Shown here one piece after another: positions 785-64,000 of a stretch of DNA of 64,000 nt (the first letter of the stretch is position 1; every line of letters begins with the position of its first letter). Location of the stretch: the NCBI RefSeq assembly GCF_024502345.1, contig NZ_JALDNN010000001.1; one strand, written 5' to 3'. The notes under the pieces were generated by a model. It did no database searches, was not told the origin of the DNA, and worked only from the letters and a program-made list of their open reading frames with translations. The position numbers and the translations under genes are program-made. Origin of the DNA: Escherichia coli (GTDB taxonomy: Bacteria > Pseudomonadota > Gammaproteobacteria > Enterobacterales > Enterobacteriaceae).

Positions 785-957
785 AAAGTTCTTTGACGTT
801 GCATTGCTGGCGTAAATGTCAGCAATGCAGCATTTCCTCACGATTCTCCTTTGACGATCGCACTTTTTGCTCGTTATGATGGCGTCGCTAGCCTCAGTAA
901 ATCCTTACTCCGGCGGTGCGCAACCCGTGCGCGTGAACCACTATCTGAATGCTCATC

Positions 958-21385: not shown

Positions 21386-21471
21386 AATAAAAAAACCTGC
21401 TGGTGAGGCAGGTTCTTTTATTTACTATTTTCAGGCCTAACACCACAGCCTGTGCAACATCGTGTTCCAAC
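21386..21471 (-). ncRNA. candidate Orz-like antitoxin sRNA (copy 1)
   Basis: minus-strand promoter (-35 TTGCAA 21501..21506, 17-bp spacer, -10 TATAAT 21478..21483), intrinsic terminator at 21386..21413; 5' end complementary to zor 5'UTR 21618..21638. Confidence 0.55.
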
Positions 21472-21995: not shown

Positions 21996-22079
21996 AATAA
22001 AAAAACCTGCTGGTGAGGCAGGTTCTTTTATTTACTACAGTGACGCTAACTTGCTGATTGTGCAACATTTCGTACCAAC
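21996..22079 (-). ncRNA. candidate Orz-like antitoxin sRNA (copy 2)
   Basis: same promoter/terminator architecture as copy 1 (-35 22109..22114, -10 22086..22091, hairpin 22006..22022). Confidence 0.55.
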
Positions 22080-22894: not shown

Positions 22895-25102
22895 TTAATG
22901 GAAAATGACGTCAGGTGCGCTTAACGCCTCACTCAAATCAAACACATCAAGTTCGGCAAAAGTGACGGATTTATTGTCACGGTACACTCGAAGAGAACGG
23001 AAGCTCATTAGCGCTTTGCTATCAACATTGTAGTGGTTAAAACCGGGTGAAAACTTAAGGACCAGCCGGTACTCGCCCAGGTCATAGACAAATGCATCCT
23101 CATAGCCTGACTCCCAGCCTTTGTATCGCATTCCCATAAGCTGCCCAACGGTAGCGGATTTACCTTCCCAGCGAGTCAGGCTGTTACTGGTTGACTCGTC
23201 AGGTGTGAGCAGCACCGTGCACCGCGCCAACTGGCGAAAAGGCGGCATAATTTCGTAATCGGCAAAAAGCTGTGCAAATTCACTGCGCATTTCTACTGTC
23301 ATTTCTAACGGGTGGGCAATGCCAATCAGAGCGTCCGCAGGCAGGTCAATTGGCTCATCTTGCGCATTGCAGAACTCCCCCTCTGCGGCCACACGAAAGG
23401 CGTTGAGTAAACAACGCGGTTCATTTGCCGGATAAGCCCCCCATATTAATCGCTGGGTAACCAGACGGGTAAAGGGATGATTAACAAACAGAGAATGAAA
23501 ATCTGCCAGCGACCAGCGTCGGGTGGTACGTAGGGCCGTTTCAAGACGCGGGAGCAGGTTTTTGCTCACCTGAGTGGCATCTTTTTTTAGCCCTTTTAGT
23601 CGGGCCAGTGCCTCGGGCGCTTTCAGTTGATCGTCATCGGCGCGCAACCGGGGAACGCTTTTCTGGCGAACGTTTTGCTGATCAAAGATAACCGGGTTGA
23701 GGTTTTCATCGAAGCGAACGGTAAACTGCCGGGGACCAAAATCAAAACTCAACGCCTGCGGATCATCAAGGCCCAGGGTTGGGACTAATCTGTCCGCTAG
23801 CTCTTCCTGGCTTAGCCCGCGATTTTCTGCGACCACCTGAAGAAATTCCGCCGCGTTATCACGTAAGGGGCGGGATTTCGCCCGTTGCGATATATGATGC
23901 AGCTGTATCAGCGCCATATCATTATTCATCAGGGTAAGGATGTTCAGGCCACTGACAGCACGGGCAGATTTGCCTTCTTGTGGCCAGCCGAGGATCTGTG
24001 TCGTTAGATCCCGTGCCGTGCTTTCGTCACCAAAGAGACTTAACGCCAGAAATGCCCAGTTGTCTTTTACGGGGGCACCAGCTTGTTGCCACGCAGTGAA
24101 GAGATCCCAGGCAAAAGCTGCCAGCGTTTGTGGCTGGCAGAACGTTTTCAGTTGTTCCAGCCCGCTATAAAAACGTCCCCCCTGGGTAAAGCGCAGCATT
24201 TCGCCGATAATTTCCAGAGCGTCATCGGTAACAGGTTGATTATTAGTGATAAGGCGCGGCCTGGACCACATTTGCGGATGCCAGAAATCAGGGGCTTTTG
24301 GAATGCGTGCCGGGTAAATCTCTATTGGACTCTGTTTAAGTAATTGTTCCAGGGCAGGCCATAGATCTGTACGCTGCCAACGATTGGCTACAGTTTGTAG
24401 CAATTCGCCATGCCCATGTTCGTAAAGTAAACGCAGGGCAAGTAATGCAGCTTCGCTTTTATCGCTAGATTTGGTGAAGACAAGAGGGATAAGTGCAGTA
24501 GCCGTATGTTCCGGCCATTGTAAAATCCACTGGCGAGCCAGATTACGCTGGCCCGCAAAACGCTGCCAGCAGCTTTCCTCTGCCAGAGAGAGATGCTTAC
24601 GCAGTCGGAGATCGAATTCGTTATAGGTTTCTGAGCGATAACCATAGCCATAATCCTCGTCCTGATACTGCAATGTCACTACCAGAGGATCACTCTCATA
24701 ACACCGCGCAATAAACTGGCGTGCAATCACCACCTCAGTCGCATATTCCAGCCCCTCTTGTTGGACGATTTCGTCGAGCAACTGTTGGCTGTCATTTTGC
24801 GCGATACAGGCTAGCGCCGCCATTGTCCGGGGCGGGATTGAGGGTTTGTGTTCGCCGATCAAGTTGATGGCCTGCGTGATGGCGGACTGCCACTCCAGTG
24901 AAAAATTTTCATAACGCCAGACAATGTTTTTTTTCTTCTCAGCTTTTTGTAGCAATTCATCACCCAGTGTCTGAATGATGCTTTCAGTGATAACAGGCAC
25001 TGGTTCGCCCGGCCAATTGCGATGGCTGAGTGGTGTTTTACCATTTTTATATTTCAGTTCCAGTTGGGCGTTATCAGCCAGCCACGGTAATTCCTTGTCC
25101 AT
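22895..25102 (-). CDS. yehI: DUF4132-type protein, shortened paralog of MolR
   Basis: 735 aa; C-terminal region clearly paralogous to MolR (FHSLFVNHPFTRLVTQRLIWGAY vs FQLFLVEHPLVRHLTRRLIWGVY); starts 10 bp after molR stop. Confidence 0.75.
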   Translation of the reverse strand: MDKELPWLADNAQLELKYKNGKTPLSHRNWPGEPVPVITESIIQTLGDELLQKAEKKKNIVWRYENFSLEWQSAITQAINLIGEHKPSIPPRTMAALACIAQNDSQQLLDEIVQQEGLEYATEVVIARQFIARCYESDPLVVTLQYQDEDYGYGYRSETYNEFDLRLRKHLSLAEESCWQRFAGQRNLARQWILQWPEHTATALIPLVFTKSSDKSEAALLALRLLYEHGHGELLQTVANRWQRTDLWPALEQLLKQSPIEIYPARIPKAPDFWHPQMWSRPRLITNNQPVTDDALEIIGEMLRFTQGGRFYSGLEQLKTFCQPQTLAAFAWDLFTAWQQAGAPVKDNWAFLALSLFGDESTARDLTTQILGWPQEGKSARAVSGLNILTLMNNDMALIQLHHISQRAKSRPLRDNAAEFLQVVAENRGLSQEELADRLVPTLGLDDPQALSFDFGPRQFTVRFDENLNPVIFDQQNVRQKSVPRLRADDDQLKAPEALARLKGLKKDATQVSKNLLPRLETALRTTRRWSLADFHSLFVNHPFTRLVTQRLIWGAYPANEPRCLLNAFRVAAEGEFCNAQDEPIDLPADALIGIAHPLEMTVEMRSEFAQLFADYEIMPPFRQLARCTVLLTPDESTSNSLTRWEGKSATVGQLMGMRYKGWESGYEDAFVYDLGEYRLVLKFSPGFNHYNVDSKALMSFRSLRVYRDNKSVTFAELDVFDLSEALSAPDVIFH

Positions 25103-55123: not shown

Positions 55124-56479
55124 ATGTTTTCAGAAGTCATGCGTTATATTCTCGACCTCGGCCCTACGGTGATGCTTCCGATTGTCATCATTATTTTTTC
55201 TAAAATATTAGGCATGAAGGCAGGCGATTGCTTTAAAGCGGGTCTGCATATCGGGATTGGCTTTGTTGGCATTGGCCTTGTGATTGGCTTAATGCTGGAT
55301 TCCATTGGTCCGGTGGCGAAAGCGATGGCGGAAAATTTCGACCTGAATCTGCATGTGGTCGATGTCGGCTGGCCGGGCTCTTCACCAATGACCTGGGCGT
55401 CGCAAATTGCGCTGGTGGCGATTCCGATTGCGATTCTGGTTAACGTGGCGATGTTACTGACCCGTATGACGCGGGTGGTAAATGTTGATATCTGGAATAT
55501 CTGGCATATGACCTTCACCGGCGCGTTGCTGCATCTGGCAACCGGTTCATGGATGATAGGGATGGCAGGTGTGGTAATTCACGCGGCGTTTGTTTATAAG
55601 CTCGGCGACTGGTTTGCCCGCGATACCCGAAATTTCTTTGAGCTGGAAGGTATTGCTATTCCGCACGGTACGTCGGCGTATATGGGGCCGATTGCGGTGC
55701 TGGTCGATGCTATCATCGAGAAAATCCCAGGCGTTAACCGAATTAAATTTAGCGCCGACGATATTCAGCGCAAATTTGGTCCGTTTGGCGAGCCTGTCAC
55801 CGTGGGTTTTGTGATGGGGCTGATTATCGGCATCCTCGCGGGTTACGATGTCAAAGGTGTATTGCAGCTGGCGGTAAAAACAGCGGCGGTGATGCTGCTG
55901 ATGCCACGGGTGATTAAACCCATCATGGATGGTTTAACGCCCATCGCTAAGCAGGCCCGTAGTCGTTTACAGGCGAAGTTCGGCGGTCAGGAGTTCCTGA
56001 TTGGCCTGGATCCCGCATTACTGCTGGGGCATACGGCGGTGGTATCGGCAAGCCTGATTTTTATCCCGCTCACCATTTTAATTGCTGTTTGTGTGCCGGG
56101 TAATCAAGTGCTGCCGTTTGGCGATCTTGCCACTATCGGCTTCTTTGTGGCGATGGCGGTCGCGGTGCATCGTGGAAATCTGTTCCGCACCTTAATCTCG
56201 GGTGTCATCATTATGAGCATCACCCTGTGGATCGCGACGCAAACTATTGGTTTGCACACCCAACTGGCGGCTAATGCTGGGGCGTTAAAAGCCGTGGGTA
56301 TGGTGGCTTCAATGGATCAGGGCGGTTCTCCCATTACCTGGTTACTGATTCAGGTTTTCTCCCCGCAAAATATTCCCGGTTTCATTATTATCGGCGCAAT
56401 TTATCTTACCGGTATTTTCATGACCTGGCGTAGAGCGCGTGGCTTTATTAAACAAGAGAAAGTCGTTCTCGCAGAATAA
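55124..56479 (+). CDS. gatC: galactitol PTS EIIC
   Basis: 451 aa polytopic membrane protein. Confidence 0.9.
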   Translation: MFSEVMRYILDLGPTVMLPIVIIIFSKILGMKAGDCFKAGLHIGIGFVGIGLVIGLMLDSIGPVAKAMAENFDLNLHVVDVGWPGSSPMTWASQIALVAIPIAILVNVAMLLTRMTRVVNVDIWNIWHMTFTGALLHLATGSWMIGMAGVVIHAAFVYKLGDWFARDTRNFFELEGIAIPHGTSAYMGPIAVLVDAIIEKIPGVNRIKFSADDIQRKFGPFGEPVTVGFVMGLIIGILAGYDVKGVLQLAVKTAAVMLLMPRVIKPIMDGLTPIAKQARSRLQAKFGGQEFLIGLDPALLLGHTAVVSASLIFIPLTILIAVCVPGNQVLPFGDLATIGFFVAMAVAVHRGNLFRTLISGVIIMSITLWIATQTIGLHTQLAANAGALKAVGMVASMDQGGSPITWLLIQVFSPQNIPGFIIIGAIYLTGIFMTWRRARGFIKQEKVVLAE

Positions 56480-56526
56480 TTTTTACCTGAGGGGGAGGTT
56501 ATCCCCCTTAACAATCAGGAGTTTTT

Positions 56527-57567
56527 ATGAAATCAGTGGTGAATGATACTGATGGTATCGTGCGCGTTGCAGAAAGCGTCATTCCTGAAATTAAACATCA
56601 GGATGAGGTGCGGGTAAAAATTGCCAGCTCGGGCTTATGTGGTTCCGATTTACCCAGGATATTTAAAAATGGTGCACATTATTATCCAATAACGTTAGGC
56701 CATGAATTTAGCGGCTATATTGATGCGGTGGGATCCGGTGTTGATGATTTACATCCTGGCGATGCGGTTGCCTGTGTGCCGTTATTACCCTGTTTTACTT
56801 GTCCAGAGTGTCTGAAAGGGTTTTATTCCCAGTGCGCAAAATATGATTTTATTGGCTCACGGCGTGATGGTGGATTTGCCGAATATATTGTCGTTAAGCG
56901 GAAAAATGTCTTTGCTCTACCCACGGATATGCCTATTGAGGATGGGGCTTTTATTGAACCGATTACCGTTGGCCTGCATGCTTTTCATTTAGCGCAAGGT
57001 TGTGAGAATAAAAACGTTATTATTATTGGTGCCGGAACCATTGGCCTGCTGGCTATTCAGTGCGCTGTCGCGCTGGGAGCAAAGAGTGTGACGGCGATCG
57101 ACATTAGCTCAGAAAAACTGGCACTGGCAAAATCTTTCGGTGCGATGCAAACATTTAACAGTAGCGAAATGAGCGCGCCGCAAATGCAGGGCGTTTTACG
57201 CGAGCTGCGCTTTAATCAGCTTATCCTCGATACGGCTGGCGTACCGCAAACTGTCGAACTGGCGGTAGAGATTGCCGGTCCTCATGCCCAACTGGCGCTG
57301 GTGGGGACGTTGCATCAGGATCTGCATTTAACATCGGCAACGTTTGGCAAAATATTGCGTAAAGAGCTGACGGTTATCGGCAGTTGGATGAACTACTCCA
57401 GCCCTTGGCCGGGGCAGGAGTGGGAAACGGCGAGCCGGTTGCTGACAGAACGTAAGTTAAGTCTGGAGCCATTAATCGCTCACCGTGGAAGCTTTGAAAG
57501 CTTCGCCCAGGCGGTGCGTGACATCGCTCGTAATGCTATGCCGGGCAAAGTGTTGCTCATTCCCTGA
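56527..57567 (+). CDS. gatD: galactitol-1-phosphate 5-dehydrogenase (Zn-ADH family)
   Basis: 346 aa; GHEFSG zinc-binding motif, GAGTIG NAD motif. Confidence 0.9.
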   Translation: MKSVVNDTDGIVRVAESVIPEIKHQDEVRVKIASSGLCGSDLPRIFKNGAHYYPITLGHEFSGYIDAVGSGVDDLHPGDAVACVPLLPCFTCPECLKGFYSQCAKYDFIGSRRDGGFAEYIVVKRKNVFALPTDMPIEDGAFIEPITVGLHAFHLAQGCENKNVIIIGAGTIGLLAIQCAVALGAKSVTAIDISSEKLALAKSFGAMQTFNSSEMSAPQMQGVLRELRFNQLILDTAGVPQTVELAVEIAGPHAQLALVGTLHQDLHLTSATFGKILRKELTVIGSWMNYSSPWPGQEWETASRLLTERKLSLEPLIAHRGSFESFAQAVRDIARNAMPGKVLLIP

Positions 57568-57672
57568 AACCGCGGGCCAGCGTGATGCTGGCCCGGTATT
57601 GTGCAAAACAGATCATTCACCAATGGTCCCCCTTCGTTTACACTAGCCACAATTGAATATGGGTAAATGACG

Positions 57673-58446
57673 ATGAATTCATTCGAGCGAAGGAATAAGA
57701 TCATCCAATTAGTGAATGAACAGGGAACCGTGCTTGTTCAGGATCTGGCGGGAGTATTTGCTGCCTCGGAAGCGACAATCCGTGCCGATTTGCGCTTTCT
57801 CGAACAAAAAGGCGTGGTTACGCGCTTTCATGGCGGTGCGGCGAAAATAATGTCCGGTAATAGTGAAACCGAGACCCAGGAAGTCGGGTTTAAAGAGCGA
57901 TTTCAGCTCGCCAGCGCGCCAAAAAACAGAATAGCGCAGGCGGCAGTCAAAATGATCCACGAAGGGATGACCGTTATTCTCGACAGCGGAAGTACGACAA
58001 TGCTTATCGCCGAAGGATTAATGACCGCCAAAAATATCACGGTGATTACCAACAGTCTCCCGGCAGCGTTTGCCCTTTCCGAAAATAAAGACATTACTCT
58101 GGTCGTCTGTGGTGGCACGGTCCGCCATAAAACGCGCTCGATGCATGGTTCCATTGCCGAGCGTTCATTGCAGGATATTAATGCCGATTTAATGTTTGTC
58201 GGTGCTGATGGTATTGATGCGGTTAATGGTATTACGACCTTTAATGAAGGTTATTCGATTAGCGGTGCGATGGTCACCGCCGCTAATAAAGTGATTGCCG
58301 TTCTCGATTCATCGAAATTTAATCGTCGCGGTTTTAATCAGGTACTGCCAATCGAAAAAATTGACATTATTATTACCGATGATGCTGTGTCAGAGGTGGA
58401 TAAACTGGCATTGCAGAAGACACGGGTAAAATTAATTACGGTGTAG
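57673..58446 (+). CDS. gatR: DeoR-family repressor of gat operon, uninterrupted
   Basis: DeoR HTH + sugar-binding domain; ~257 aa single ORF. Confidence 0.85.
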   Translation: MNSFERRNKIIQLVNEQGTVLVQDLAGVFAASEATIRADLRFLEQKGVVTRFHGGAAKIMSGNSETETQEVGFKERFQLASAPKNRIAQAAVKMIHEGMTVILDSGSTTMLIAEGLMTAKNITVITNSLPAAFALSENKDITLVVCGGTVRHKTRSMHGSIAERSLQDINADLMFVGADGIDAVNGITTFNEGYSISGAMVTAANKVIAVLDSSKFNRRGFNQVLPIEKIDIIITDDAVSEVDKLALQKTRVKLITV

Positions 58447-58458
58447 TATTGTTCTGTA

Positions 58459-58490
58459 TGCCGGATAAGGTGTTTACACCGCATCCGGCA
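58459..58490. repeat. REP element
   Basis: TGCCGGATAAGGTGTTTACACCGCATCCGGCA. Confidence 0.7.
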
Positions 58491-58527
58491 TTACGGATTC
58501 TCTCTGGTTCAAGAGAGAATAGTTTGA

Positions 58528-59427
58528 TTAACGCAATAATGGGCAATCTGGTGGTAATCGACAACGCAACGCCGCCGGAAGTATTTCAATATGGAAGTTT
58601 TGCCCACTCAACGGTTCGCCATCAAGATTAAAAGTGATTTCGTGTGGGGCTTGTATATCAAACCACGACGAAGCGCCTTCGATAATATTCGGGTTATCTT
58701 CGTCAGATTTTAAGGTTGATACGAGAGCTGGAAGAATTTCATCGCCGGTAAAAATGCGCAGTTGCAGCAAGCCATCGTTAATTAACGCGTTCGGACACAA
58801 TTGCTGACCGCCACCGGCCTGACGCCCGTTACCAATACCAATGACCAGGGCGTCACCTTGCCAGTGAAAGTTTTCACCGTGGATTTCACAACGGTCCGGT
58901 TGCAGAGTATCCATGCGCATTAAGCCATGAATGATATAAGAGACGCCACCCAGCGCGGCTTTTAATTTTTCCGGCGTTTCTGTGGTAATACGCGTCCCAA
59001 ATCCGCCTGTCGCCATATTAATAAAACAGGTTTGTTTGTTGACCTGCGCCATATCTATCGCAATGGCGTTACCGGCAATTGCCAGTTTCAGCGCCTTATC
59101 CAGTGCCTCAGGAATCCCTACACTGGTGGCAAAATCATTGGCGGTTCCTAATGGCAAAATTCCCAGCGCGGGTATGTTATCCCCCTCACACTGAATCAAC
59201 GCCGTAGAAACTTCATTAATGGTGCCATCGCCACCACCGGCAATCACCGTTGCGACGCCCAACTTCCGGGCCTCCTCTACATATCGTGCGGCATCGCCTT
59301 TCTCCCAGGTGACCCGCACATGGATCGTCATTCCTTCCTCACGCAACAGCATAATTGCTTCGCGCAATGGTAAATTGTCAGTACTTTTGCCATTAAGAAT
59401 CAGTAAGCTGGCGGGAAATTCTGCCAT
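58528..59427 (-). CDS. yegS: lipid kinase YegS (DAGK_cat family)
   Basis: 299 aa; GGDGT motif. Confidence 0.9.
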
Positions 59428-59840
59428 GATCGTATGTGCCTTTATGATTGGTCTGTAGATAGTGTAGAGCAGAAAAGAAAAGGTGGAGTCAGAACAGGAT
59501 GAAAGTCGGAGGATAAAAAGTCAGTTCAAGTATGGGGGATTCAGTGGTTACCACCAGGAGCTTGCAATGGGAACAGCGAATATTAACGGTAGCCACCGAT
59601 AAATTTCAAAAAAGAGCATATGCCTAATATTCAACCAAACAGTGGCATCTTAAATATACTATTCCAAATATATTAAAGTCCCATGGAGTTACCTGGAAAG
59701 GGCCTTCATGTCTGTAATTCCTACTTATGTAGGAAATGTTGTACAGAACATTTATTATAATCCTATTCAAATATAATAATCAGCCATTATTATATTTAAA
59801 CACTAGAGAGTGTCGTTGGTATTTAATGGGGAAAGGTGAG

Positions 59841-60158
59841 ATGAAAAAGATAGCTGCTATATCATTAATTAGTATTTTTCTTATGTCTGGTTGTGCTGTG
59901 CATAATGATGAGACAAGTATCGGTAAATTTGGTCTTGCATATAAAAGTAATATTCAGCGTAAACTCGATAACCAATACTACACCGAAGCCGAAGCTTCTT
60001 TAGCCAGGGGCAGAATATCTGGTGCAGAAAATATAGTAAAAAATGATGCAGCCCATTTCTGTGTTACTCAGGGCAAAAAAATGCAGATAGTTGACCTGAA
60101 GACAGAAGGTGCAGGATTACATGGCGTCGCTCGTCTGACATTCAAATGTGGAGAGTGA
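59841..60158 (+). CDS. yegR: small lipoprotein YegR
   Basis: ORF trimmed to MKKIAAISLISIFLMSGC lipobox (105 aa). Confidence 0.75.
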   Translation: MKKIAAISLISIFLMSGCAVHNDETSIGKFGLAYKSNIQRKLDNQYYTEAEASLARGRISGAENIVKNDAAHFCVTQGKKMQIVDLKTEGAGLHGVARLTFKCGE

Positions 60159-60316
60159 GAATATTTTTTGGTAAGCGTCAAACATGCGCGTTCTGGTTGT
60201 GCTTAGCCGGAACCTGTGCGAGCACGATGCCGTTACGTGAAAGGCATCGTGCTATGAAGGGAGATTCTATCGATGTGGTCAATGGAAGACGGTGGCCAGG
60301 GATAGGGCTTATGCAT

Positions 60317-60343
60317 AAAAAATAAGCCCGTGTAAGGGAGATT
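60317..60343. other. P2 attachment core AAAAAATAAGCCCGTGTAAGGGAGATT (attL)
   Basis: exact 27-mer match to the P2 att core as I recall it; located 80 bp from int 3' end. Confidence 0.85.
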
Positions 60344-60422
60344 TAGGGTGTCACCAGTAGGGGCTTTCAACGGTACAATGCGGGTTTGAGCGGCATAAAT
60401 TACCACTGAAAGCCCTTAAACG

Positions 60423-61436
60423 TTACTCTACTGTGGACACTGTGTGGACACTCTCGGCCTCAGTACCACCTCTTAGCGGATTAAGAGAAATGGCGTCCTG
60501 AAGGTACTCTGGCGCAAAATGAGCGTAAACCATAGTTTGCTCAATCCGCGTGTGACCTAGTATCCGTTGTAGCGTGATAATACTTCCTCCATTAATCATG
60601 AAATGAGTGGCAAAGCTGTGCCTTAGTGCATGTGTGGCTTGCCCCATTGGCAAATCCGGTTTTATTGCTTTCATTGTTCGTCTGAAGCGAGGGTAATCAG
60701 CATCAGGGAATAAAAAACCTCGTTTGTTATCCGCGATCATTTTGGCAACAGCCTCTGAGATCGGGACGGTGCGTGGTTTGTTTGTTTTCGTTTTAACAAA
60801 CGTGACGCGGTTATGGATGATATTTTCTGCTTTCAAACGAGCTGCTTCTCCCCAACGCGCTCCTGTACTCAGGCAAAGAATCGCAATCTTTTTATTGTCG
60901 CCGTCAAGTGCTGCAAGCAGTAAGGCAATTTCTTCCTGTGTGAGATAGCCTGTTTCTGGTTTTTCCTCCTTAAGCCTCTTTGTCCCTCTGATAGGGTGCT
61001 CACCAAAGAATAACTCCGCTTCAATCAGGGCTGTAAACATGCCGCTAATACATGTTAAATCACGATTGATACTCGAAGGTTTAATACCCTGACTTCTTCG
61101 GGTGGCGCAGTACTGGCTGATAAGGGATTTCGTGATTTGAAATGCGCATGGGTCATTCGTTATTTTTGTGAAGATTTCAATTTTTCCAAGATTAGATTTC
61201 CCATGCTCTTCGTGTTTACCCTTTAAATCCCACCAGATCTGTGTCAGTTCCGACAGACGTCGTTTGTCTGTTGGTTTTGATAGCCATTCTTTATTGTGGT
61301 GGTTGTACAACGTGTATTTTTCGAAAGCGACAGCTTCGCTTTTCTTATCAAATTTCCTACGGATGCGTTTTCCGTTACGTCCAGTAGGGCGGATGTCCAC
61401 TTCATATCGACCATCATCGAGTTTTTTGATTGCCAT
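60423..61436 (-). CDS. int: P2-type tyrosine integrase
   Basis: 337 aa; C-terminal HxxR...Y catalytic motifs (HALRHSFATHF...YAHF). Confidence 0.95.
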   Translation of the reverse strand: MAIKKLDDGRYEVDIRPTGRNGKRIRRKFDKKSEAVAFEKYTLYNHHNKEWLSKPTDKRRLSELTQIWWDLKGKHEEHGKSNLGKIEIFTKITNDPCAFQITKSLISQYCATRRSQGIKPSSINRDLTCISGMFTALIEAELFFGEHPIRGTKRLKEEKPETGYLTQEEIALLLAALDGDNKKIAILCLSTGARWGEAARLKAENIIHNRVTFVKTKTNKPRTVPISEAVAKMIADNKRGFLFPDADYPRFRRTMKAIKPDLPMGQATHALRHSFATHFMINGGSIITLQRILGHTRIEQTMVYAHFAPEYLQDAISLNPLRGGTEAESVHTVSTVE

Positions 61437-61551
61437 CAGAAAACCCTCCGAGTGGTACTTTTTTTTGCTACTACTAATCGCTTTTTTCGTGGTGGCTGAA
61501 ATTTAGCCACCAATAGTAGGCACTTGTGATGAATATATTCACGATAAATTG

Positions 61552-61851
61552 TTAACCAGTCTTTTGACCGGAGTGGGGCGACGTTGTTTCGTTTTGCCCA
61601 AAGTGTGCGAGAGCGGGCGCAATTTGCCCGGCTTCTGGAGCTACCTGATCAGTCATGAACCACAAAGTATATTTAGTAAATCTAGGATGTTGTAAGACCT
61701 TCATTATGGCTTCAACTCCAGCGTTTTTTGACCGGCTCTCATAGCTCGAAAGTGAGCTGTAGGCTACACCAGTTAATTCACTGAATTCTTTACGGTTTAA
61801 CCTTTCAGATTCACGGATTAGCTTCAACTTCTCCGAAACGTCTATTGACAT
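61552..61851 (-). CDS. C: P2-type immunity repressor C
   Basis: 99 aa from MSIDVSEKLKLIRESE; HTH; divergent from cox. Confidence 0.85.
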   Translation of the reverse strand: MSIDVSEKLKLIRESERLNRKEFSELTGVAYSSLSSYESRSKNAGVEAIMKVLQHPRFTKYTLWFMTDQVAPEAGQIAPALAHFGQNETTSPHSGQKTG

Positions 61852-61972
61852 AATTACTCCGATTGCGTAATTTCTTGCTGATAGTGTGAAATGTTGTGCT
61901 TCTGGAGTTATCCTTTTAGGCAATAATTAGCCATTAGGAGCCATTAGAAGCACTAAGGGAGAATCGTAGCAG

Positions 61973-62248
61973 ATGAATAGACAGCTTGTAAGCGTGACTG
62001 ATGCCGTGCCTTATCAGGAGTTTGCAAAACTCATTGGTAAAACTCCAAGAGCTGTAAGGGGCATGATTGAGAAAGGGAAATTACCAGTTATTGAGATTAC
62101 TGACCCTCAGTCAGTATCGGGGCGTGCTGGTGAATATTGGGTATACCTTCCGGCATGGAATAACGGACTAAAACTGGCTTATGAAAGCCGTCCTAAAGAG
62201 ATTCGTGACGGCTGGTTGATGTGGTTAGGTCTCGGTGAACCACGTTAA
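61973..62248 (+). CDS. cox: Cox excisionase/early repressor
   Basis: 91 aa, divergent from C. Confidence 0.85.
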   Translation: MNRQLVSVTDAVPYQEFAKLIGKTPRAVRGMIEKGKLPVIEITDPQSVSGRAGEYWVYLPAWNNGLKLAYESRPKEIRDGWLMWLGLGEPR

Positions 62249-62258
62249 GGAGAACCGT

Positions 62259-62429
62259 ATGAATGAGCCGCGTTGTATTGCTCAGTTATTGCGTAACGAA
62301 AGCCCCAGGGCGATTGACTTCACCATCACCCACGGGAAGGGACGCAAGGGAATCATTATCCGCACCAAAAAACAGAGTCCGTTAAAGAAGGCTCTGACCT
62401 TTCTGAAAAGCCGGAGGGTCTGGAAATGA
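62259..62429 (+). CDS. P2 orf78-like small protein
   Basis: 56 aa from MNEPRCIAQ; position between cox and B. Confidence 0.6.
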   Translation: MNEPRCIAQLLRNESPRAIDFTITHGKGRKGIIIRTKKQSPLKKALTFLKSRRVWK

Positions 62430-62926
62430 CAGTGATGACGCTCAATCTCGTTGAAAAACAGCCAGCAGCTATGCGCCGGATAATTGGTAAGCATCTTGCC
62501 GTCCCTCGCTGGCAGGAGACATGTGATTATTATAATCAGATGATGGAACGTGAACGGCTAACGGTTTGCTTCCATGCGCAGTTAAAACAACGTCACGCAA
62601 CGATGCGTTTCGAAGAAATGAACGATGTCGAACGTGAACGGCTGGTTTGTGCAATTGATGAATTGCGTGGGGCATTCTCAAAACGCCGTCAGGTCGGTGC
62701 AAGTGAGTATGCATATATTAGTTTTTTAACAGTCAGTCAGCGTCGTACTTTATTTATGCATGCCGGATTGACTGAAAAAGAATTCAACCAGCCATACTGG
62801 CGAATTAATGAAGAATCATGTTACTGGCGTGATGCTTTATTCCGTGCATTACGTGAATTATTCAGCCTGTTTGAGTATGCACCGACAATTCTGACGTCGG
62901 TAAAACCAGAGCAATATCTGCATTAA
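62426..62926 (+). CDS. B: P2 replication protein B (helicase loader)
   Basis: 166 aa in P2 order. Confidence 0.8.
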   Translation: MTVMTLNLVEKQPAAMRRIIGKHLAVPRWQETCDYYNQMMERERLTVCFHAQLKQRHATMRFEEMNDVERERLVCAIDELRGAFSKRRQVGASEYAYISFLTVSQRRTLFMHAGLTEKEFNQPYWRINEESCYWRDALFRALRELFSLFEYAPTILTSVKPEQYLH

Positions 62927-62989
62927 GTAATTAACCAGAGTTTTTAACGCACTTAATTGTGCGGGGCTTCTTTTTGCCTGGAGAAAGTC

Positions 62990-63214
62990 ATGCATACAGT
63001 TTCTGAAAATCAGTGCGGTAAATACGCATTACTGCTGCAACAGGCCAGAACCGAAGCACAGGCCGACGCAGCGACGCGCTTTTCTTCTCATCTTGACGCC
63101 ATGATTCGCCACATCACAAAGGCGGAGTTATCCCGCGTGGAGATAGTCGAGCTGCTCAGTCAGGAGTCGGAAAAATTTCACAATATCGGATTGTCTCGCG
63201 GGGAGGTACTTTGA
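62990..63214 (+). CDS. P2 orf80-like
   Basis: small ORF in P2 early operon; start uncertain. Confidence 0.55.
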
Positions 63215-63513
63215 TGTCCTGTTCTCATTCAGTTGTATTACTGAATAACGCCTTAAAAATCGCCGTTATGGAAAATGGTGATTTGTCTCTTATTCAACTT
63301 GGTCTTGATAAAGAAAAACGCGACATCACTGAATCTGTTATCGCGATTTATCAGAATGAATTAAACCTCCTGTCTGATGTGGTCAATTTACTTGTTAAAC
63401 GCGCTGTATTCCACAAGCAAATTTCCTCAGTGGATGAACTGACAAAATTAACGACAGAACTTGCCTGTTATTGCGCTGATGTATCCAGGAAACTTAACGA
63501 TAAAAGGAGCTGA
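63211..63513 (+). CDS. P2 orf81-like
   Basis: 100 aa, overlapping start/stop with neighbours. Confidence 0.6.
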
Positions 63514-63515
63514 TA

Positions 63516-63740
63516 ATGCCGGACAACGTAGATTTTATTCAGGAACAACAGGCTGAATTACTGGAGCGCCAGATTAACGCGGCAAGGGGTAAACATTGCG
63601 GTGTTTCTGCGCTGGTTTGCGAAGAGTGTGATGCGCCAATACCTGCTGCCCGTCGTGCGGCTTATCCGTCAGCCACGCGTTGTGTTTCCTGTCAGTCAGT
63701 CTTTGAAGCAAAAAACAAACATTACCGGAGAACGGCATGA
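63516..63740 (+). CDS. TraR/DksA-family C4 zinc-finger protein (P2 orf82-like)
   Basis: CEECDAPIP...CVSC four-Cys motif; 74 aa. Confidence 0.75.
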   Translation: MPDNVDFIQEQQAELLERQINAARGKHCGVSALVCEECDAPIPAARRAAYPSATRCVSCQSVFEAKNKHYRRTA

Positions 63741-64000
63741 GTATTCGTATTGAAATTGGCGAACGTTATGTCGTTACCAGTGACAGCTTTCAGTTTATTC
63801 TCCACGAGAAAAAGAGAGCGGAAAGCGGTAAAAACGCCGGTCAGGAATGGCTGGCGGTGGTTGGTTATTACCCGAAATTAAGCCAGCTCGTTTCCGGCCT
63901 GATGCATCACGATATTCTGACCGGAAGCGCAAAATCTTTTGCTGATTTAAACGCGCAGGTTGAGCAACTCAGCAAGCGTTGTTCTGAGGCTTTTGGCTCA
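63737..64000 (+). CDS. P2 orf83-like (3' end beyond window)
   Basis: ORF starting MSIRIEIGERYVV, runs to window edge. Confidence 0.55.
   Translation, partial: MSIRIEIGERYVVTSDSFQFILHEKKRAESGKNAGQEWLAVVGYYPKLSQLVSGLMHHDILTGSAKSFADLNAQVEQLSKRCSEAFGS

Follow-up and report, generated by a model that had tools for sequence, protein, structure and literature searches.

In the window, as we call the whole stretch of 64,000 nucleotides of Escherichia coli DNA analyzed here, the galactitol genes lie in the order gatY-gatZ-gatA-gatB-gatC-gatD-gatR-yegS. The same order is found in strains MLI023K1, HS, NCM3722, and MG1655, which makes the gatR of the window a positional orthologue of theirs. The gene is one unbroken open reading frame on the plus strand that ends in a stop codon at 58446 and offers two in-frame ATG codons, at 57667 and 57673 (ORF list). 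A Shine-Dalgarno-like GGGT at 57661-57664 stands 8 nt from the ATG at 57673 and merely 3 nt from the ATG at 57667, and because of this spacing the downstream start is the more likely of the two. The coding sequence then spans 57673-58446 on the plus strand (257 codons and a stop), where the alternative start at 57667 would yield a product of 259 amino acids. The 105-bp gatD-gatR intergenic region (57568-57672, plus strand) contains a hairpin with an 8-bp stem at 57574-57594 that lacks a T-run, and it is 100% identical to the spacers of HS and of K-12 strain NCM3722. On the other side, gatR converges with yegS (58528-59427, minus strand; ORF list) across an intergenic region at 58447-58527, whose sequence contains a REP-like palindrome and a terminator-like hairpin at 58497-58520.

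The product has the two-part architecture of a DeoR-family regulator. An N-terminal helix-turn-helix DNA-binding domain (HTH_DeoR, PF08220) is encoded at 57688-57846 on the plus strand, residues 8-60 of the 259-amino-acid form, and matches the Pfam profile with E=1.3e-16 and 60.5 bits against a cut-off of 21. A C-terminal sensor, or effector-binding, domain (DeoRC, PF00455) follows at 57919-58380, also on the plus strand (residues 85-238 of the same form), with E=2.5e-51 and 174.2 bits against a cut-off of 31.8, and covers profile positions 5-159 of 160. Both scores are far above the gathering scores, so the reading frame is not a chance one, and the presence of both domains places the product in the DeoR family. 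Among solved structures, the DeoR C-terminal domain 7l6l comes closest in sequence (E=1.9e-11). The sequence-only reading, which had described gatR as a single uninterrupted DeoR-family ORF, was thus accurate on this point.

Positions 57400-58700 of the window are 100% identical at the DNA level in MLI023K1, the closest complete genome. The RefSeq coding sequence of that strain maps to 57673-58446 and encodes the 257-amino-acid protein WP_001295426.1, annotated as ‘DeoR/GlpR family DNA-binding transcription regulator’ and called ‘DeoR family galactitol utilization operon repressor’ by sources in a protein collection. GatR of E. coli HS bears the same accession and is identical to the window protein at 257/257 residues, as direct translation also shows; the two alleles are separated by seven synonymous nucleotide differences and none at the protein level. 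The same 257-amino-acid sequence, at the same place between gatD and yegS, is found in NCM3722 and in most natural isolates.

The IS3E site and the distribution of uninterrupted gatR

In MG1655 and NEB5-alpha, gatR consists of a 300-nt and a 477-nt piece parted by a 1258-bp IS3 (IS3E). The MG1655 annotation places IS3E at 2170171-2171428, with insE5/insF5, within gatR b4498, where it splits the gene in the DeoRC domain. That K-12 gatR is broken by an insertion element and the operon thereby made constitutive was the premise of the sequence-only reading, and the literature agrees: constitutive or high gat expression is ascribed to the broken K-12 gene in three studies (PMC5850726; PMC3045373; bioRxiv 10.64898/2026.01.05.697630). 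At the NEB5-alpha junctions, ...GGGATGAC adjoins TGATCCTACCC... on one side of the element and ...GGGTAAGATCA adjoins GACCGTT on the other, the IS3 ends being TGATCC...AAGATCA. The K-12 point of entry corresponds to window positions 57969-57971, at codons M99/T100 inside the DeoRC domain, with a 3-bp GAC duplication. In contrast to MG1655 and the DH5alpha-type strains, where duplicated GAC flanks the IS3, the window carries a single copy of GAC at 57969-57971 (plus strand) and reads continuously across the site as GGGATGACCGTT; neither IS3 nor a GAC duplication was found at codons 99/100.

To compare the coding sequences, the two K-12 halves were joined minus the IS3 and one GAC copy, which gives a gene of 774 nt. 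The rebuilt K-12 GatR is the same protein as that of the window, and the genes differ at seven true nucleotide positions, all of them synonymous. An apparent eighth difference, at nt 300, is the edge of the annotated fragment, which takes in the first IS3 base. In other words, the b4498 and NEB5-alpha pseudogenes occupy the same locus and have the same coding potential as the window gene once IS3E and one GAC are removed. Alignment with HS GatR and with the reconstructed K-12 protein revealed no frameshift or truncation, the outcome on which the earlier claim of an intact repressor gene had been made to depend.

An uninterrupted gatR is in no way distinctive among E. coli. A gatR match was found in 5109 of 5426 complete genomes, and in 4756 of the 5426 it is full-length and in one piece; in uninterrupted genomes megablast returns a single match over 100% of the query. 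About 350 records match in two places. In the sampled rows, all of these split records break at query position 297, which is the K-12 IS3 site, and most are recognizable laboratory strains (e.g. ER1709, AML003_par, NEB5-alpha). About 300 complete genomes are without gatR and match yegS only. In a large protein collection, the exact window GatR occurs on at least 1000 contigs. The unbroken gene is the species norm and the IS3E-broken gene the exception; the intact state is ancestral and the break secondary. Because K-12 strain NCM3722 is without IS3E, the break is confined to part of the K-12 strains.

NCM3722 also settles the proposal that an intact gatR marks a sequence as non-K-12, which does not hold: this K-12 strain has an uninterrupted gene encoding WP_001295426.1, and Lyons et al. 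had already explained why MG1655 expresses gat more highly than NCM3722 by a gatR disruption ‘only in this strain’ (PMC3045373). All that an intact gatR rules out is a K-12 strain with IS3E in the gene, MG1655 or one of its derivatives for instance, and on its own it is no basis for calling a sequence ‘non-K-12’. Better evidence is provided by the seven synonymous gatR SNPs and by a P2-like prophage beyond yegR; each gat enzyme of the window also differs from that of K-12 by several amino acids. As a side observation, the MG1655 reference has gatC annotated as a pseudogene besides gatR::IS3E and is thus doubly atypical at the gat locus, and NEB5-alpha and NCM3722 carry the intact common GatC allele.

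Control of the galactitol operon

The structural genes that GatR would control, gatYZABCD, occupy 52198-57567 on the plus strand, as located by tblastn with the HS proteins. Each is full length: gatY (52198-53052), gatZ (53081-54343), gatA (54353-54805), gatB (54836-55120), gatC (55124-56479), and gatD (56527-57567), all on the plus strand, with gap-free alignments over the full length of the HS proteins at 98.9-99.6% identity. Ahead of gatY lies a promoter and regulatory region at 52120-52197 (plus strand), delimited by promoter scan, repeats, and alignment and presumed to be the GatR target. The scan gave a CRP-like site TGTGATCGCTATCTCG at 52120-52135 (half-site pair TGTGA-N6-TCTCG), a -35 element TCGACA at 52133-52138, and a -10 element CATTAT at 52157-52162. 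A perfect 9-nt direct repeat, AAAACAAAT, is present on the plus strand at 52143-52151 and 52175-52183, its copies 32 bp apart and so placed that the -10 element and the presumed start both lie between them. These repeats are the most likely candidates for GatR operators. The fbaB terminator (52054-52075) is upstream of the gatY promoter elements, and further upstream of both, in the fbaB-gatY intergenic region, we observed an Rfam match to naRNA4, a REP-derived nucleoid-associated RNA, at 51923-51993 (plus strand).

A second operator-like pattern, AAAACARATCATT, matches the window at just two places, one ahead of gatY and one ahead of gatR, where 0.36 matches would be expected, a count that is circular in that the pattern was built from the same two sites that it matches. 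The gatY copy is not kept in K-12 and HS, where AAATAATT is found in its place, and AAAACARATCATT as a shared operator motif is a weak lead. A related AAAACAGATCATT at 57605, upstream of gatR, could point to autoregulation, with the same circularity of the motif and the same variation of the gatY copy in K-12 and HS.

Experiments in other strains indicate what such an allele does. Sousa et al. swapped the MG1655 gatR pseudogene for the HS sequence, using primers in yegS and gatD, and obtained a strain that still consumed galactitol and in which the operon was regulated; constitutive mutants arose again in mice when IS elements newly inserted into the restored gene (PMC5850726). CRISPRi against gatR had a strong effect in the natural isolates LF82 and CFT073, as opposed to no effect in MG1655, where the gene is described as ‘broken due to an insertion of IS3E’ (bioRxiv 10.64898/2026.01.05.697630). 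In Salmonella Typhimurium, GatR is described as repressing the gat promoters via its helix-turn-helix (PMC7972205); this is another species with a different gat cluster.

We conclude, with a probability of roughly 0.88, that 57673-58446 is a wild-type, functional gatR encoding the DeoR-family repressor of the galactitol operon. The gene is intact and has both domains, its product is identical to that of an allele with demonstrated regulation, the region upstream of it is identical as well, and its target genes are intact. Because the HS-identical protein restored regulation, the gatD-gatR spacer is the same, and gatYZABCD are full length, there is good reason to expect that the operon can be repressed and induced here, on the strength of experiments that come from other strains. 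Besides the GatC substitutions described below, one point counts against the functional reading: regulation was shown on the K-12/HS gatY promoter, and the promoter-proximal 100 bp of the window carry four substitutions relative to K-12 and HS, the one at 52128 being private to the window in an alignment with MLI023K1, HS, and K-12.

Hypothetically, regulation would proceed as follows. We infer that the N-terminal winged helix-turn-helix of GatR recognizes operator sites in the gatY promoter, for which the AAAACAAAT repeats around the -10 element are the probable candidates, and that binding there would keep gatYZABCD off. The GatABC phosphotransferase system would import and phosphorylate galactitol, giving a phosphorylated intermediate. 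By analogy with other DeoR-family sugar-phosphate repressors, galactitol-1-phosphate or tagatose-6-phosphate may be the inducer, which would bind the DeoRC domain and release the repressor. cAMP-CRP at the adjoining CRP-like site would add catabolite control.

This is the ordinary wild-type regulatory arrangement of the galactitol operon, and the finding has little value for discovery. The prediction of the sequence-only reading that galactitol catabolism is inducible can be upheld insofar as regulated expression is reasonable for an HS-identical repressor with the same spacer and full-length structural genes. As a prediction of growth it goes too far: inducibility in that sense requires that the GatABC transporter work, and the phenotype is not readable from gatR alone in a strain with an A64V/G391V GatC.

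The GatC allele and competing readings

The most serious competing explanation leaves the repressor active and places the defect in transport. The GatC of the window, the IIC component of the PTS, departs from WP_000490679.1, the near-universal allele common to HS, K-12, and MLI023K1, at exactly two residues, A64V and G391V (nt 55314 and 56295), and this exact sequence occurs on one contig among some 15 billion proteins. Both positions are invariant in 133/133 other homologues, down to 69% identity, in a set of Gat-family IIC proteins from Escherichia, Cronobacter, Kluyvera, Klebsiella, Kosakonia, Salmonella, and Gilliamella. If the two changes impaired uptake, no phosphorylated inducer would be formed, galactitol would not be used, and the operon would remain repressed and non-inducible. 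There is a precedent of a kind, as gat-negative mutants with changes in, for example, gatA or gatC are readily selected in the mouse gut (PMC5094792; PMC5850726). However, that selection is reported in constitutive, gatR-broken strains and not in regulated ones (PMC5850726). The gatC gene is also full length and in frame, and the change from alanine to valine is conservative. Furthermore, the homologue set is invariant at 48% of GatC positions, so that two random missense changes would both fall on invariant sites about 23% of the time; because so many columns are invariant, in a set reaching only to 69% identity, the coincidence is not significant. The double substitution is thus suggestive and might impair uptake, and we regard the reading in which a defective GatC keeps the operon repressed as possible but unlikely.

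For the strain itself, we infer only tentatively that natural variation may have left it galactitol-negative or altered in transport, with its repressor retained, an outcome that we consider rather improbable. In that case the strain could mirror in nature the gat polymorphism for which evolution experiments in the mouse gut select time and again. Prediction of the galactitol phenotype needs the whole operon, especially the unusual GatC allele, besides the repressor.

The recent history of these substitutions can be followed against MLI023K1. Over the 16 kb of positions 44399-60343, the two sequences differ at eight sites, all within 52128-57032: one in the gatY promoter, three in gatZ, three in gatC, and one in gatD, with five of the seven coding changes non-synonymous. 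The three gatC changes (two missense, one synonymous) are derived in the window, and MLI023K1 has the derived states gatZ V101/K322 and gatD V169. We considered the cluster as an anomaly and rejected this, since its density of 0.16% is within the background patchiness elsewhere in the window (0.06-0.43%); it may be just a recombination patch.

A second alternative holds that the gatR ORF, while intact, is silent or non-functional, which would leave the operon constitutive as in MG1655. No consensus sigma-70 promoter was found by promoter scan in the 105-bp gatD-gatR spacer, and the hairpin 3' of gatD has no T-run; gatR may be transcribed from a promoter of its own or by read-through from gatD. 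Yet the protein and the spacer DNA are those of HS and NCM3722, a yegS-to-gatD fragment of HS sufficed to restore regulation in MG1655 (PMC5850726), and gat expression in NCM3722 is lower than in MG1655 (PMC3045373). A silent gatR is very improbable.

That the ORF is instead another DeoR-family paralogue, of AgaR or SrlR type, has next to nothing in its favor, as its best NCBIfam scores (AgaR, NF040755, 232.9 bits; SrlR, NF007753, 226.3 bits) are under the curated cut-offs of 260 and 350, the gene stands directly after gatD at the place of MG1655 b4498, and the protein is identical to one that sources name the galactitol utilization operon repressor. NCBIfam holds no equivalog specific for GatR. 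The wild-type repressor that we favor shares its HTH_DeoR and DeoRC architecture with AgaR, SrlR, GlpR, DeoR, and UlaR of E. coli and resembles AgaR and SrlR over its whole length; as it falls below every equivalog cut-off, it is a separate paralogue devoted to gat.

Other features of the window

The end of a P2-like prophage occupies 60344-64000, between yegR and yegQ. Its genes encode an integrase (60423-61436, minus strand), a repressor-like helix-turn-helix protein (61552-61923, minus strand), proteins resembling Cox (61973-62248) and replication protein B (62426-62926), and a small zinc-finger protein (63516-63740). About 740 complete genomes carry this arrangement, whereas K-12 has only an ogrK and D' remnant at the site and MLI023K1 has nothing there.

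Two tandem Rfam matches to the OrzO-P antitoxin RNA are found on the minus strand, at 21389-21464 and 21999-22072 (99.9 and 88.8 bits). They belong to units of about 500 bp that are about 88% alike, implying a putative duplicated zor-orz type I toxin-antitoxin locus. A TPP riboswitch ahead of thiM (43981-44077, plus strand) and a Peptidase-S11 cis-regulatory RNA motif ahead of pbpG (873-953, plus strand) are both expected for the region. Structural differences from MLI023K1, in the yehI region and the yeh fimbrial region, are at 24559-24569, where MLI023K1 has about 1.4 kb extra, and at 33928-34696 and 36318-37376, where the alignment breaks.
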